Assembly (NCBI GenBank): GCA_044238845.1
Contig: JBIICN010000004.1
Coordinates: forward strand, 73,785-97,784
Length of the DNA stretch: 24,000 nucleotides
Reading direction: 5' to 3'
Source of the DNA: Bacteroidia bacterium
Lineage (GTDB): Bacteria > Bacteroidota > Bacteroidia > B-17B0 > Aurantibacillaceae
This document shows positions 3,504 to 11,833 of the stretch, one piece after another. The notes below the pieces were generated by a model. The model saw only the letters and a program-made list of their open reading frames with translations. It did not search any database and had not been told where the DNA came from. Position 1 is the first letter of the stretch; each line of letters begins with the position of its first letter. A program made the translations under genes and the position numbers.

Positions 3504-4565
3504 TTACTTATAAAGTTCCTCTCTTATCTCAATTAAAACCTCTTCAGCTTTCTCGAGGTTAGGTTGTTCTGGTAAATTAGATTTCTCATAAAGATCTTCT
3601 ATTTGATAGACTTTCTCATTTGCTAATTCTACCAATTCTTCATAAGAAAAAGCGCCTGAACGAATTTTAAGTAAAAATTCACGATCAAATCTCCTAACAT
3701 TTACCTTGCCCTCTTTTGCAATTTCTTCGGCCATATTTAGTAACCTGAAGGTATGCATCATGTTCTTGGCATCGTAATTCTTTCCGTGTTCTATGGTATT
3801 TTCATAGCGAACATCATTACGCTTTTCTACCCATTCCCAATATTCTTTATAATCCTTGCAATATTTAGAGTAACCATCTTTATTGAAGCTTAATATTGCC
3901 AAAGGCTCAATTCCTTTTTCAACTGAGCTTAACGAAATATCATTAGCCTCAATGCCTGAACTTACACCTTTTAAGTATCCTTCTGTTAATTGTCTGTTGT
4001 GGAATAAAGCATAAACCTCACGCATGTGCGAAATATTTACCAAACCACAATGTTCCTGAAGTAATCCTTTTTTAGTTAACCATGAAGTTAAGGGAATGGA
4101 GCCTTGTTGCTGTATCACATGACAAAAATCCACAACCGATTTTCGTTCAAGATCAACAGGATTAACGATTTTTTTATTTAGTCTTTTTGCTTTTTTTATT
4201 TGTGATTGCGCATAGCCGGCAAATGTTTGTTTACATAATTTTGAGAGAAACAATTCAGGTTTCAAAAGGTCCATGATCGGATGCCTGTGTTTGATACAAT
4301 CTACAGGAGTATTTAATAATTCAAGAATATTAGGATTGTTTTTTACTAATAAGTCAACAAATCGTTTTAATTCATAATACACTTCATCATTGGTTTCATT
4401 ATTTACCTGTTCTGTATATTCCAAACCATAATAGGTGCGTTTAGGCAAAAGAAACACACCCTTCATATCTGTATCAGATTGAGGGGTGTGTAATCCATAA
4501 GCTCTACTGCCACTAATGCAATCAAGCAATAACAAATTGTTTTCTTTCATGCCCTTTATGGTCAT
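3504..4565 (-). CDS. RlaP-type (PF10127-like) Pol-beta superfamily nucleotidyltransferase, long form
   Basis: It contains the motif SGSRAYGLHTPQSDTDMKGVF (GS...D.D minimal NTase). I prefer the ATG at 4565 (MTIKGMKENN...), 1 nt after the upstream stop, over the track start at 4604. Confidence 0.7.
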   Translation of the reverse strand: MTIKGMKENNLLLLDCISGSRAYGLHTPQSDTDMKGVFLLPKRTYYGLEYTEQVNNETNDEVYYELKRFVDLLVKNNPNILELLNTPVDCIKHRHPIMDLLKPELFLSKLCKQTFAGYAQSQIKKAKRLNKKIVNPVDLERKSVVDFCHVIQQQGSIPLTSWLTKKGLLQEHCGLVNISHMREVYALFHNRQLTEGYLKGVSSGIEANDISLSSVEKGIEPLAILSFNKDGYSKYCKDYKEYWEWVEKRNDVRYENTIEHGKNYDAKNMMHTFRLLNMAEEIAKEGKVNVRRFDREFLLKIRSGAFSYEELVELANEKVYQIEDLYEKSNLPEQPNLEKAEEVLIEIREELYK

Positions 4566-4566
4566 C

Positions 4567-5331
4567 TCAATAGTTTTTAAGTATGTTCCTGAATAAACCA
4601 TCAAGGCCTACTTCTTTTTCTTTTCTTCCCGCTAAGCTATTAAATATATGCTCTGCTTTTTCTATTTCATTCAAGATAAATTCATTGATAGTTCTTTCAG
4701 CAGGATGCATATAACTTTCGTTCTTACCCGACTTTAAAGATATCAGATCTTTTATTCTTGTTTTCAATTCAGCATCAAAAGACAGCTCGTTAACCATCGT
4801 GATGAATACTATTGGAGGCACCGAATCTTTTTCTATGATCCACTTGCAAGCTAACGTTGCTCTTAACGCATAAAATAATTTCTTTAATTTTATTTCATCC
4901 CTGCCTTCTATTTCCGAAAAACTATTTTTTGCCATACCTAAATAGTGATACATGGTTGCTATAGGCGCAAAACATTTCTCTGAGTATTGTTTTAATAAAG
5001 CAGCTATGTTATTCTCTTCTGTATAAACTACCGGCGATTGAACTCTTTCTAGCAATGCGCCATTTGATTTCCACATCAGCTTTAAACATTTTTTGATATC
5101 CCAACCCGTTATATCCAATTCACCATCCTCCGACATAAATTCGATCGTATCTTTTTTATCTGATAAAGAAAGATACCAATCTAAGTCATGCATATAGATC
5201 ATTCGAACATCAAAATCGCTGTCCGGAGAAGGAAATCCCCATGCTCTAGAACCAGTCTCACACGCATAGAGAACCTTTACTTGATATTTCTGTTCTATGT
5301 CTTTTATTTGATCTTTTATTCTAGTTTCCAT
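4567..5331 (-). CDS. RlaP-type (PF10127-like) Pol-beta superfamily nucleotidyltransferase, short form
   Basis: 254 aa with the motif ETGSRAWGFPSPDSDFDVRMIY. It is a paralog of the next gene, and I recall this family as RNA-repair-associated. Confidence 0.75.
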   Translation of the reverse strand: METRIKDQIKDIEQKYQVKVLYACETGSRAWGFPSPDSDFDVRMIYMHDLDWYLSLSDKKDTIEFMSEDGELDITGWDIKKCLKLMWKSNGALLERVQSPVVYTEENNIAALLKQYSEKCFAPIATMYHYLGMAKNSFSEIEGRDEIKLKKLFYALRATLACKWIIEKDSVPPIVFITMVNELSFDAELKTRIKDLISLKSGKNESYMHPAERTINEFILNEIEKAEHIFNSLAGRKEKEVGLDGLFRNILKNY

Positions 5332-5347
5332 TTTTTATAGTATTTAT

Positions 5348-5480
5348 CAAAGGGCAAAAAAGTAAATAGAGTTTTTTTACTGAGCTATCTTGTTTTAACA
5401 AGAGCAGGAATTGAACCTACGACTTCCAAACATTTCTGGTTGCCGCTCTAACGAAGTATCTCTATTTTACGGCACCTTTG
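5348..5480 (-). ncRNA. Y-RNA-like element Yl-8 with a D-loop-permuted tRNA-like module
   Basis: The minus-strand read begins CAAAGG-U-GC-C-GUAAAAUAGAG-AUACUUCG-UUA-GAGC-G-(CCAGA AAUG UUUGG)-AAGUC. It continues GUAGG UUCAAUU CCUGC (T arm)-UCUUG UUAAAA CAAGA-UA-GCUC-AGU A7-CUCUAUUUAC-U6-GC-CCUUUG. The basal helices pair end to end. Confidence 0.6.
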
Positions 5481-5500
5481 AATTTTTTAATTTTCTTTCA

Positions 5501-10052: not shown

Positions 10053-10083
10053 ATTTTAATTTTATATTTTCAAAGAACGTTTG

Positions 10084-10273
10084 TGACCCGGATGAGATTC
10101 GAACTCATATTTTCTTGCGAACAGTATGGCTGTAAATACGCTTCCCTAATCTGAATAATCATTTCGGTGCACTGTAAATTGTACCCTTCAAAACGCTTGG
10201 TTAAGCCGGGATATTCCATACACTCCGTGGTTCCGTAATTTTACCACAGCTTTTCCTTTTAAGCTATCGGGTC
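10084..10273 (-). ncRNA. 190-nt tRNA-framed RNA immediately 3' of rsr (tRNA acceptor, D and T arms around a ~105-nt insert)
   Basis: The 5' part reads GACCCGA UA GCUU AAAAGGAA AAGC U GUGGU AAAAUUACGGA ACCAC. A ~105-nt insert follows, containing the long-range stem GUAUGG/CCAUAC. The 3' part reads AUGAG UUCGAAU CUCAU CCGGGUC A. Confidence 0.5.
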
Positions 10274-10280
10274 TTTTTAT

Positions 10281-10310
10281 AAACCCTCCCGTCCAAATTA
10301 ACAGGAGGGG
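10281..10310 (-). terminator. Hairpin just downstream of the rsr stop (partial terminator or processing structure)
   Basis: The minus-strand stem CCCUCCUG / CGGGAGGG includes a U-G pair that would be a C-A mismatch on the plus strand. It is followed by UUUAUAAAAAG. Confidence 0.4.
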
Positions 10311-10315
10311 TAATC

Positions 10316-11833
10316 TTATAACTTCACTTGTTTGATTTTTTCAACTGCACTCTCACCATTTTCGATCGCATGTAATACATCAAACACTTTATCCGACCAA
10401 CCTGCAATTAAACATACATCGTTGTTCTGCAAACTTACAGGGCTGGTTCCATAACCGGCTAGGTCAAACAAATACAATTTTGCATTTGGAAACATGGCTT
10501 TATATGTTTTCCATGATTTAGCAAGCGAGGAACCTCCGAACTTACTATCCCATAACTGGCAATCGGTAAACAACATAATCTTATCCATTTCTACTTCACG
10601 TTTGATCAAATCATCTATTACTTTATAACCATTTGTTGAGTAACCAACTTCACCTTCTCGTTTGTAAAACTCGTTTACATTTGCCAACACATTTCTGTTC
10701 GAAATATTGATCACCTTCCAGCTATCACCAAACATACCGCTTACAACGCGTTTGCATTTTGATTGCATCAACATACCTAGCATTAAACCGATATCAAATA
10801 ACAATACTTTGCTTTTTGCTGATATCGCTTTTTGCATCGAACCAGATACGTCGCAGGCAATTAATACACGGGTGTTTTCATCAAAACCTTTTAAGTTTTT
10901 TACACTTGCAACAACTGCATCTTCCAAAGCATTTAAAACCATAGATACAAGATCCGAGTTCAACACTTTTATTTCACGGTATGCAGCTAAGAAACGGAAA
11001 GGCAATTGTTTTGAATTTGCTACAGCAATTTCATCCGACAAATAATCACATACTTTTAAAACATGACTTGCTGATACTTTTGCTTCTAATATGTTTCTCA
11101 GGTTTCTCATCAAAGCCATATAACCTATTTTATTGCTTTCGATCAACTCTTCCCATTTTGCTTTAACCGCTGCTGCTTTTGCTTTCTCATTTTCATATTT
11201 CATCTGACCTAATGCCGATAACTCAGTTTCCCAGGTATATGGTACCGCTAATTCGTTTACAGCTATTTTGTTGAATATAGTTTGTTGTTCATCATTTTTT
11301 GCTTTTGGGTGAACAAGGAACAAGGCGTCACGTAGTTTTATTTCGGTATCGCGATTATACTTTGCAAACTGGTATTCATCAAAACGATTAAACGATTCTG
11401 ACAAACCCTTTTGTACCTGTTTTGAAAGTCTGTTCAGTTTTTTCACGTCGTTACGGTTATTTGCCATTTGGTAATAAGCTAGTAACTCAGTGATCTCATC
11501 TGCACGTTTCACAACTCCCGAAACAGTTTTTCCAACAATGGCATTACCCGAATTTGCTTTTGCTAGTTCTACTGCCAATACCATTGGTATACTTCTCATA
11601 TGCATTTCAGTACGGGCATATACAGCGAGTTTCGCAATATATTCAGGATCGTTTTTTAACATCAGTTCCTGAATACGTGCTAAACGAACATCACTTTTTT
11701 CATAAAAGTTATCGTTTAATCCGGCAGTAACAACGGCTGAGTATAATTCCATCTCAGGAGTCAGCTTGTAAGCTTTTTCACCTGCGTAGTTAGTTACGTT
11801 GTTTGCTTTTTTAGTAAAGATGTTAAATTTCAT
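10316..11833 (-). CDS. rsr: Ro60-related protein Rsr (TROVE domain plus C-terminal vWA/MIDAS)
   Basis: 505 aa. The N-terminal part has a TROVE-like HEAT-repeat pattern (NYAGEKAYKL, LNDNFYE, FAKYNRD, KQLPFRFLAAY). The C-terminal vWA domain carries the MIDAS motif ACDVSGSM. Confidence 0.9.
   Translation of the reverse strand: MKFNIFTKKANNVTNYAGEKAYKLTPEMELYSAVVTAGLNDNFYEKSDVRLARIQELMLKNDPEYIAKLAVYARTEMHMRSIPMVLAVELAKANSGNAIVGKTVSGVVKRADEITELLAYYQMANNRNDVKKLNRLSKQVQKGLSESFNRFDEYQFAKYNRDTEIKLRDALFLVHPKAKNDEQQTIFNKIAVNELAVPYTWETELSALGQMKYENEKAKAAAVKAKWEELIESNKIGYMALMRNLRNILEAKVSASHVLKVCDYLSDEIAVANSKQLPFRFLAAYREIKVLNSDLVSMVLNALEDAVVASVKNLKGFDENTRVLIACDVSGSMQKAISAKSKVLLFDIGLMLGMLMQSKCKRVVSGMFGDSWKVINISNRNVLANVNEFYKREGEVGYSTNGYKVIDDLIKREVEMDKIMLFTDCQLWDSKFGGSSLAKSWKTYKAMFPNAKLYLFDLAGYGTSPVSLQNNDVCLIAGWSDKVFDVLHAIENGESAVEKIKQVKL

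Follow-up and report, generated by a model that had tools for sequence, protein, structure and literature searches.

In Salmonella Typhimurium the gene for the Ro60 ortholog Rsr is followed on the same strand by two Y RNAs (YrlA and YrlB), among them a permuted transfer RNA (tRNA) mimic with the order T arm, closed acceptor stem and D arm, and then by the RNA ligase RtcB, an arrangement designated rsr–yrlBA–rtcBA (Chen 2013/2014; Hughes 2020, PMC7790460) that is adjoined by the divergent gene of a ligand-sensing regulator, the sigma-54 activator RtcR with its CARF domain. Deinococcus radiodurans likewise encodes a Ro60 ortholog with adjacent same-strand Y RNAs (Yrn1/Yrn2; RYPER with PNPase), which lie upstream of rsr with no linked RtcB or RlaP, and Yrn1 has a T arm and an anticodon-like arm and no full D arm (PMC4201824). 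The stem of a Y RNA binds Ro60 mainly by its 5′ strand, YrlA mimics tRNA, and 355 Y RNA candidates in 276 genomes were reported by Chen 2014 (PMC4201824; bioRxiv 10.1101/312249); YrlA has been suggested to serve as a decoy (PMC7790460). The locus described here, in which a single rsr gene is accompanied by eight Y-like RNAs, lies in 24,000 nt of a Bacteroidia bacterium (assembly GCA_044238845.1, contig JBIICN010000004.1, 73,785–97,784), and this whole stretch is referred to as the window, on which all positions are counted.

Several other known systems bear on this locus. RlaP adds one or two nucleotides to the 3′ ends of damaged RNA (PMC12776372), and PrfH acts with RtcB in the rescue of damaged ribosomes (PMC9304027; the gene pair also in PMC6514570). 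In Anabaena tRNA arrays are co-regulated with rtcB, and cyanobacterial L-arrays consist of many same-strand tRNA genes, some of them atypical, near RNA-repair genes, with Bacteroidetes among the phyla listed as having long tRNA arrays (Santamaria-Gomez 2021, PMC8421152). Phages carry related modules as well: the Ro60 of Thermus phage phiLo has two bound Yrl RNAs (Yrl1/Yrl2) with a CGAA motif, encoded upstream of its gene (PMC12135203), and mycobacteriophages, too, have a phage Ro60 with Y-RNA-like RNAs (PMC4201824). The association of Ro60 with RtcB, of RlaP with RNA ligases, of prfH with rtcB and of tRNA arrays with rtcB is thus already published.

In the window these pieces stand together in an RNA-damage repair island of about 15 kb on the chromosome of an uncultured member of the Bacteroidota. 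Judged from its gene and RNA content, the island is probably a modular response to damage of the translation apparatus, likely under the control of a divergently encoded WYL regulator. As in Salmonella, Rsr precedes same-strand Y RNAs, including a permuted tRNA mimic, and then RtcB, and a divergent ligand-sensing regulator adjoins, here a WYL/WCX protein in place of RtcR; in contrast to Salmonella there are eight Y-like RNAs and a further tRNA-ordered RNA (T0), the 5′ motif is GYCGUA rather than GNCGAA, Y RNAs also occur between protein genes, RtcA is missing, and two RlaP genes, a tRNA-Lys gene and a tRNA array are added. The Y RNAs lie downstream of rsr, unlike those of Deinococcus. A preliminary description of positions 3504–11833, made from the sequence alone, had recognised an RNA-repair locus (Rsr, Y RNAs, RtcB and RlaP, with WYL in RtcR's place and without RtcA) and had remarked that its Y RNAs outnumber those of studied loci; the present analysis supports both statements (eight against two in Salmonella and two in Deinococcus).

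The evidence centres on the Y-like RNAs. A covariance model (R1), built from 18 orthologs of the best element (E), detects eight full-length elements in the window, every one on the minus strand, with E-values from 1e-35 to 3e-7; the ninth-ranked match is an adjacent tRNA pair and a false positive, tandem tRNAs being the class of false positives flagged by Chen 2014 (PMC4201824). An interim count of five elements, obtained by eye and with a regular expression, was replaced by the eight found with nhmmer and the covariance model. Eight was also the number first described, all of them placed in one series between T0 and tRNA-Lys; only A–E (9057–10052) occupy that position, the other three lying among the protein genes, F1 and F2 between the S24 peptidase and membrane-protein genes and G between a hypothetical gene and rlaP. 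The eight elements are as follows.

9925–10052, minus strand: Y-like RNA A, a Y stem and a three-way junction with a T-loop-like hairpin, GAGGUGCAAAUCCUC (R1 34 bits, E=1e-7).
9819–9919, minus strand: Y-like RNA B, a Y stem, a T arm and one hairpin, without a D arm (R1 57.8 bits).
9357–9482, minus strand: Y-like RNA C, YrlA-type, with T arm, closed acceptor-like stem and D arm (R1 64.7 bits).
9212–9350, minus strand: Y-like RNA D, in which an opened D loop connects the Y stem to a tRNA-like domain that retains an anticodon-like arm (R1 45.9 bits).
9057–9205, minus strand: Y-like RNA E, the canonical YrlA-type member (R1 141 bits).
8532–8606, minus strand: Y-like RNA F1, about 75 nt, Y stem only (R1 32.7 bits).
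8457–8531, minus strand: Y-like RNA F2, about 75 nt, Y stem only, abutting F1 (R1 45.9 bits).
5346–5482, minus strand: Y-like RNA G, built like D and separated by 14 nt from the start of rlaP (R1 56.4 bits).

Elements A–E lie at most 1.3 kb and F1 and F2 at most 1.9 kb downstream of rsr, within the zone used by Chen 2014 (about 4 kb from rsr, same strand), while G is farther away at 4.8 kb yet on the same strand. For comparison, 33 related loci carrying rsr relatives were assembled, 29 of which were scanned with R1; comparison loci, including phage-like ones, are given L-numbers where they must be told apart. Orthologs of B were found in nine loci (79–98% identity) and of C also in nine, and orthologs of G precede rlaP in three (L002, L015, L022).

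All types have in common an outer stem, an internal loop holding CGUA and an inner stem of eight pairs. Their 5′ signature, G(Y/A)CGU(A/U), nine bases and UAC(U/A)UCG, is represented by 83 distinct copies; in the window and the 29 scanned loci, 103 occurrences fall within the 62 kb that follow rsr on its own strand and 12 in the remaining 853 kb. In alignments made without structural information, the predicted structure of type E (18 orthologs) has 97.3% of cells paired and 15 of its 32 pairs supported by compensatory changes, none of 500 shuffles being as good and slid-partner controls reaching 38–50% paired. Type D/G (13 sequences) behaves in the same manner, with 96.8% of cells paired, compensatory changes at 20 of 32 pairs and again no shuffle among 500 as good; compensatory pairs number 10 of 13 in type F (19 sequences) and 21 of 32 in type A (13 orthologs). 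The long stem between the 5′ and 3′ ends, in both its outer and inner parts, covaries in types E, D/G, F and A. A test of cognate against non-cognate Y-stem duplexes was also positive (37 of 114 elements beat all 15 decoys; mean −14.8 versus −11.0 kcal/mol), albeit a blunt one because Y stems resemble each other. On covariation the Y-like elements are real structured RNAs, and of several architectures: E and C have a tRNA-like domain in the YrlA order, D and G have a different permutation that resembles Deinococcus Yrn1, and A, B, F1 and F2 are without a full tRNA-like domain. At gathering thresholds Rfam identifies only tRNAs in the window, and a permissive scan adds weak YrlA matches to E (9072–9189, 29 bits) and C (9372–9466, 21.9 bits).

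Two further RNA-level features border or interrupt the array.

10084–10273, minus strand: T0, a tRNA-ordered (unpermuted) RNA of about 190 nt (five homologs, covariation).
9482–9812, minus strand: a strain-specific insertion of 331 nt containing two inverted Flavo-1-like units (Rfam RF01705, 39.4 bits on the plus and 22.5 bits on the minus strand).

T0, which the preliminary description had rightly reported as a tRNA-framed RNA, comprises a 7-bp acceptor stem, a D arm, an anticodon-like arm with a loop of 11–12 nt, an insert of about 105 nt at the variable arm, and a T arm. Its termini are at the acceptor stem as in a tRNA, unlike those of YrlA-type RNAs. Five distinct homologs are known (the window group, L030, L005, L010 and L023), always in rsr loci; the alignment has 89% of cells paired and compensatory changes at 16 of 45 pairs, matched by none of 500 shuffles, for five sequences and a structure derived from the same alignment. 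ARAGORN does not call T0 a tRNA, no Rfam family matches it, and it was not found in viral contigs. A proposed homology of its 3′ half to the Y 5′ motif (GCGUA...AUACUGUUCG) was rejected, being a resemblance by eye for which a hidden Markov model of the motif gives no match. An identical run of 15 nt, ACAAACGTTCTTTGA, follows both T0 (10070–10084) and the tRNA-Tyr of the tRNA array described below (13091–13105), both on the minus strand, where none would be expected by chance; it may be a common 3′ processing signal or a recombination scar.

The 331-nt segment is what had been described as a GC-rich structured element following the Y RNAs. It does exist, with a GC content of 43% against 34% for the window, but it sits between B and C, splitting the array, and is no part of the system: it is missing from L021 and all other loci, including those with a 98% identical Rsr, in which B and C are 5 nt apart, and it is for this reason considered an insertion. 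Neither of its units reaches the Flavo-1 gathering score of 42 bits. Flavo-1-type sequences may, on this distribution, be mobile repeats.

The protein-coding genes between rsr and the second rlaP are listed in their order of transcription.

10316–11833, minus strand: rsr, a Ro60 ortholog of 505 residues (Pfam TROVE 4e-30, with vWA_Ro60).
8619–8939, minus strand: a stand-alone S24/S26-type peptidase domain of 106 residues with a GNSM serine motif (Pfam Peptidase_S24, 24 bits, barely over the cut-off).
7871–8362, minus strand: a protein of 163 residues with an N-terminal hydrophobic membrane segment (from sequence), its gene overlapping rtcB by ATGA.
6447–7874, minus strand: RNA ligase RtcB1, 475 residues with an N-terminal extension of about 100 (Pfam RtcB 2.7e-79 over residues 105–465; phrog_1075 1.6e-96).
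5501–6430, minus strand: a hypothetical protein of 309 residues in a variable slot (weak DUF5677, Pfam 23.3 bits, under the cut-off).
4567–5331, minus strand: nucleotidyltransferase RlaP1 (Pfam RlaP 2.2e-77, full length, 260.6 bits).
3504–4565, minus strand: RlaP2, a longer RlaP-related nucleotidyltransferase (Pfam RlaP 3.4e-26 in the N-terminal half, 92.9 bits; phrog_388 2e-54 over the full length).

All seven products agree with the first description, as judged by Pfam and the open reading frames (ORFs). Rsr has more than 4800 homologs, the nearest 120 clusters of which are 74–98% identical and all from uncultured Bacteroidota (metagenome-assembled genomes); the closest solved structures are those of phage phiLo Ro60 (9KOP/9L5Y), matched over the full length with E=2e-25, which places the two proteins in the same subfamily by sequence. 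Rsr and RtcB are encoded together, as in the rsr–Y RNA–rtcBA operon. Both RlaP proteins belong to PF10127 (260.6 and 92.9 bits, cut-off 23) and are encoded 3′ of rtcB; the ORF of RlaP2 spans 3504–4604, its probable start being, from start context, the ATG at 4565, and phrog_388, which it matches from end to end, is a phage nucleotidyltransferase family. The hypothetical gene lies in an ORF of 336 codons (5501–6511) with a likelier start at the ATG at 6430. The membrane protein has just seven homolog clusters among 5.8 billion proteins and no family match in Pfam, PADLOC or PHROG, and the hypothetical protein, S24 domain and RlaP1 have no significant sequence match in the PDB. No ORF of the window matches the RtcA cyclase, the sigma-54 activator RtcR, Pnkp or Hen1, as had been claimed at the outset, and the adjoining regulator is instead a WYL+WCX protein; apart from this protein and a weak DolB match on an M41 protease, PADLOC reports nothing defence-related.

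Control of the island is suggested by the region between rsr and its divergent neighbour.

12072–13082, plus strand: WYL+WCX transcription regulator, probable start at the ATG at 12072 (Pfam WYL 6e-13, WCX 6e-11; PADLOC WYL 2.6e-25).
11834–12071, between the two genes: divergent control region of rsr and WYL, with the palindromes GCGCACAGGAATTGCGC (11893–11909) and CTACGCAAATACAATGCGTAG (12004–12024).

The WYL gene is divergent from rsr in nearly all related loci. The palindrome GCGCA-N7-TGCGC, of which the window has a single perfect copy (11893–11909), precedes rsr by some 60–200 nt in most of 15 matching loci, with a further copy ahead of rtcB in L002 (4560–4576) and L015 (2069–2085). On this pattern it is a candidate WYL operator.

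The locus is larger than the extent of about 8.3 kb (3504–11833) given at first. In addition to the WYL gene it takes in a tRNA array and an rtcB2–prfH–M41 module (14693–18796), both of which had been overlooked.

13104–14010, minus strand: tRNA array with Gln, Leu, Ile(UAU), Pro, Phe, Arg, Pro, His, Tyr and two degenerate genes (ARAGORN, Rfam).
14693–16819, minus strand: AAA+/M41 FtsH-like protease, 708 residues, apparently soluble (Pfam).
16707–17348, minus strand: prfH (TIGR03072, 246 bits against a cut-off of 167).
17393–18796, minus strand: rtcB2 (Pfam).

The two degenerate genes are class-II and Ser-like and lie in a gap of the array (13678–13761 and about 13776–13860). Because it includes tRNA-Ile(UAU) and low-scoring members, the array suggests itself as accessory and horizontally spread. 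Compared with the L-arrays of PMC8421152, the window has nine tRNAs plus two degenerate ones and its relatives up to 17 around rsr, the housekeeping set being outside the 24-kb view; what distinguishes the present arrays from the cyanobacterial ones is that they abut rsr and are mixed with Y RNAs (here 9–11 genes), and PMC8421152 mentions neither Rsr nor TROVE. In the neighbouring module, PrfH exceeds the equivalog cut-off and is encoded directly after the RtcB paralog, as in the known pair (PMC9304027; PMC6514570), with RtcB2 itself under the TIGR03073 cut-off (142 versus 272). Here prfH is followed by the M41 protease gene, which is not among the partners in PMC6514570, and the module adjoins the tRNA array and the rsr locus. 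The M41 partner of prfH recurs in L002, L015, L022, L027 and L031–33, and in L002 and L015 rtcB2, prfH and the M41 gene come directly after rlaP2.

Some smaller sequence relationships were seen in the same region. The T arms of Y RNAs E (9140–9160) and B (9865–9885), GCAGGUUCGAAUCCUGC, are identical to that of an array tRNA-Pro (13518–13535), all on the minus strand, and a 21-nt identity to tRNA-Pro is present in L001 too. A direct repeat of about 183–230 nt with 73% identity (14493–14721 and 19082–19309) contains a Bacteroidetes-type promoter-like box, and behind each copy there are a short ORF (25 and 10 codons, respectively) and a strong terminator; of the two copies, one lies upstream of the tRNA array and one upstream of rtcB2, and by their position the repeats could provide a shared leader or attenuator control of the two.

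The comparison of related loci separates a conserved core from more loosely linked modules. In every related locus with enough sequence, 4–7 Y-like RNAs come after rsr, and R1 gives 144 matches in the 29 loci, all on the rsr strand. The order A–B–C–D–E–tRNA-Lys recurs in relatives down to about 70% Rsr identity, and among loci that bear tRNA genes and have an Rsr identity of at least 77%, nearly all have tRNA-Lys(UUU) after rsr. Same-strand tRNA arrays of 5–17 genes stand beside rsr in 15 related loci, and the island order is repeated in contigs from at least three metagenome samples. The S24 gene is kept 3′ of tRNA-Lys in L001, L004, L014, L016, L017, L024 and L030–33. By contrast, only about half of the distinct lineages have an rtcB gene in the 10 kb that follow rsr, and fewer have rlaP there. 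The slot between rtcB and Y RNA G/rlaP is a gene-replacement hot spot: it is filled by the DUF5677-like 309-residue protein in the window and in L015 (94% identity) and by a 195-residue zf_Tbcl protein (15059–15646) in L031–L033, of which the Rsr is 98% identical. Conservation among relatives extends to the core of WYL, rsr, Y array and tRNA-Lys, and to its linkage with rtcB and rlaP in only about half of the lineages. "Unusually large" is apt when the locus is set against model organisms but not within its own clade, where relatives have 4–7 Y-like RNAs and phage-like contigs carry arrays of their own.

Whether the stretch from rsr to rlaP2 is one transcription unit depends in part on the following elements.

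10283–10309, minus strand: hairpin just past the rsr stop with a weak U tract (−17.6 kcal/mol, z = −2.9; similar sequence in L003 and L015).
8979–9052, minus strand: tRNA-Lys(UUU), 4 nt after Y RNA E (ARAGORN; Rfam 62.9 bits).
8945–8978, minus strand: terminator-like hairpin and UUUUUAUU, ending 9 nt before the S24 start (−9.5 kcal/mol, z = −4.0).
3384–3416, no strand assigned: bidirectional terminator closing the rlaP unit (−15.2 kcal/mol, z = −6.7).

The preliminary description had proposed a super-operon, that is, a single promoter upstream of rsr and one obligatory transcript of 8.3 kb down to rlaP2. A good deal of the layout would fit: everything lies on one strand, the ATGA overlap at 7871–7874 is exact from the ORF coordinates, as is the 1-nt gap at 4566 (TGA 4569–4567, g, in-frame ATG at 4565), the spacing of the non-coding RNAs, given as 2–9 nt, measures 0–6 nt, the sole strong terminator comes after rlaP2, and the only perfect GCGCA-N7-TGCGC of the window stands upstream of rsr. 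Moreover the ATG of the S24 gene is 9 nt past the tRNA-Lys hairpin, which leaves no space for a promoter of its own, and for want of this room the gene would be expressible solely by read-through of the hairpin. Such tight spacing and the overlapping or abutting genes favour long transcripts, and since the non-coding RNAs are so closely set, precursor transcripts would be cut by enzymes of the RNase P/Z type. A scan for sigma-70 promoters was uninformative (51 matches versus 59.5 expected), and one for the Bacteroidetes TAnnTTTG element gave no convincing promoter within the array. Nonetheless, a single obligatory unit is unlikely, although its probability is not negligible: past tRNA-Lys there is a terminator-like hairpin and U tract, a second copy of the rsr-type palindrome stands ahead of rtcB in L002 and L015, L030 has an M43 peptidase gene on the opposite strand between the S24 gene and rtcB, half of the lineages have rsr and Y RNAs but no rtcB or rlaP nearby, and the gene between rtcB and rlaP is exchanged among relatives with 98% identical Rsr. 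Because the rtcB/rlaP linkage holds in about half of the lineages while the WYL–rsr–Y array–tRNA-Lys core is conserved, the locus is probably a modular, co-regulated island rather than one obligatory operon.

A second alternative is that the island is a phage-derived or otherwise mobile counter-defence cassette against host tRNA-cleaving defences, kept as a prophage remnant or as island cargo. The closest solved structure to Rsr is a phage Ro60 (PMC12135203), RlaP2, RtcB and Rsr match PHROG families, and tRNA-Ile(UAU) and the degenerate tRNAs resemble horizontally spread arrays (PMC8421152). An alignment-based scan of IMG/VR recovered 45 contigs with Rsr relatives of 30–62% identity, in which R1 finds 95 Y-like matches (at most seven in any locus), without exception on the rsr strand, and 14 of the 45 bear 5–27 tRNAs, again all on the rsr strand. 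Two such predicted viral contigs are L154 (=L092), with an Rsr relative 62% identical and Y-like RNAs interspersed among 11 same-strand tRNAs, and L158 (=L110), where the corresponding figures are 55% and 27. Genes near rsr in L092 include an HNH endonuclease, an RLIG1-like ligase fragment, ARPP-1 and a DNA methylase. On the other hand, no integrase, capsid, tail or terminase gene is present among the ORFs of the 24-kb window, a single-protein search with Rsr found no close relative in viral contigs, the flanks of the window (a CLC channel and AraC) are ordinary chromosomal genes, with AraC and M48 neighbours common to relatives, and IMG/VR calls in tRNA-rich regions can be false positives. 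The window thus differs from phiLo, with which it shares adjacent Y-like RNAs, in being chromosomal and in having eight of them, and a phage-derived cassette is a doubtful, if reasonable, account of the island. A third possibility, that turnover of the tRNA array left the Y-like elements behind as decaying tRNA genes or repeats derived from tRNA, with no function as partners of Rsr, is very improbable. In its favour are their tRNA-like T and D arms, the equality of the E and B T arms with that of tRNA-Pro and the weak false positives that tandem tRNAs give with the Y model. Against it, the 5′ motif is absent from tRNAs and its 83 distinct copies keep a fixed spacing, there is covariation in the long terminal stems and in the apical helices, relatives retain the orthologous order down to about 70% Rsr identity, F1 and F2 lack any tRNA portion, and the strand bias is absolute.

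The modular response island might operate as follows. Ribotoxins such as anticodon nucleases or rRNA nucleases would cleave tRNA or rRNA, and the WYL protein, in RtcR's role as damage sensor, would perceive a nucleic-acid signal and derepress the genes. A first unit of rsr, T0, the five Y RNA paralogs and tRNA-Lys(UUU) would most likely be made as one precursor and cut by tRNA-processing enzymes; transcription would then either stop at the hairpin past tRNA-Lys or read through into the S24 gene, F1/F2, the membrane protein, RtcB, the variable gene, Y RNA G and the two RlaP genes. The module shared by all Y RNAs, a bipartite 5′/3′ stem with GYCGUA in the 5′ strand and then UACUUCG, is the presumed binding site of Rsr, which from what is known of the family would hold the stem through its 5′ strand, and the resulting ribonucleoproteins may handle or shield damaged or tRNA-like RNAs. 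To go by their families, RtcB would reseal breaks with 2′,3′-cyclic-phosphate and 5′-OH ends, RlaP would restore lost 3′ nucleotides, and PrfH and RtcB2 would free and repair ribosomes with cut 16S rRNA, while the linked tRNA genes may replenish lost tRNAs, as proposed for the Anabaena arrays (PMC8421152).

Several points weigh against this account. The hairpin after tRNA-Lys could separate the units on either side of it, and about half of the related lineages lack the linkage of rtcB and rlaP to rsr. The Rfam YrlA family (RF02553) scores 29 bits where its gathering score is 69, and the 5′ motif differs from the published GNCGAAN0-1G in having U for A. No exact copy of either palindrome occurs before the membrane-protein and rtcB genes of the window, where only a degenerate CTACGCA-type site can be made out by eye. 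Lastly, the mechanism assigns no role to the S24 peptidase, the membrane protein or the variable gene.

A bolder extension, which we regard as speculative and rather improbable, is that the Y array is a panel of differently built tRNA mimics co-evolving with the tRNA arrays. Each paralog might then act against a particular tRNA-targeting nuclease, as decoy or inhibitor, or serve as an adaptor bringing Rsr-associated enzymes to a particular class of damaged tRNA. T0, with a Y-like stem in its variable arm and processed like a tRNA by RNase P/Z, might represent a surviving stage between tRNAs and permuted Y RNAs. If so, the recurrence on phage-like contigs of Rsr together with both kinds of array would make the whole a widespread mobile "tRNA protection kit".

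In the accessible literature, which leaves prior mention possible in Burroughs & Aravind 2016 and in reviews from the Wolin laboratory, we found no diversified arrays of 4–8 Y RNAs per Rsr gene, no GYCGUA...UACUUCG signature, no Y RNAs between repair genes, no tRNA-ordered relative such as T0, and no tight linkage of rsr and Y RNAs to tRNA arrays in Bacteroidota or phage-like contigs. As the Rfam YrlA model fails to reach them, such Y-like RNAs have probably escaped annotation in phage-like contigs and in environmental Bacteroidota genomes by the thousand. The presence of 4–8 structurally different Y RNAs beside one Rsr, interleaved with RtcB, RlaP, PrfH and tRNA arrays, is a natural experiment on the specialisation of paralogs, and two cultured Flavobacterium strains with four Y-like RNAs each, RS13.1 (complete genome, L009) and SM15 (L019), could make the question testable.

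Beyond rtcB2 the window continues with the gene of an M48/SprT-like peptidase and then a very large DUF4011/AAA_11 helicase gene that runs off its end (19448–24000, plus strand). The counterpart of the helicase in L031 has 1817 residues and MTES_1575 and WGR domains, and the pair of M48/SprT-like and helicase genes flanks the island in all close relatives.

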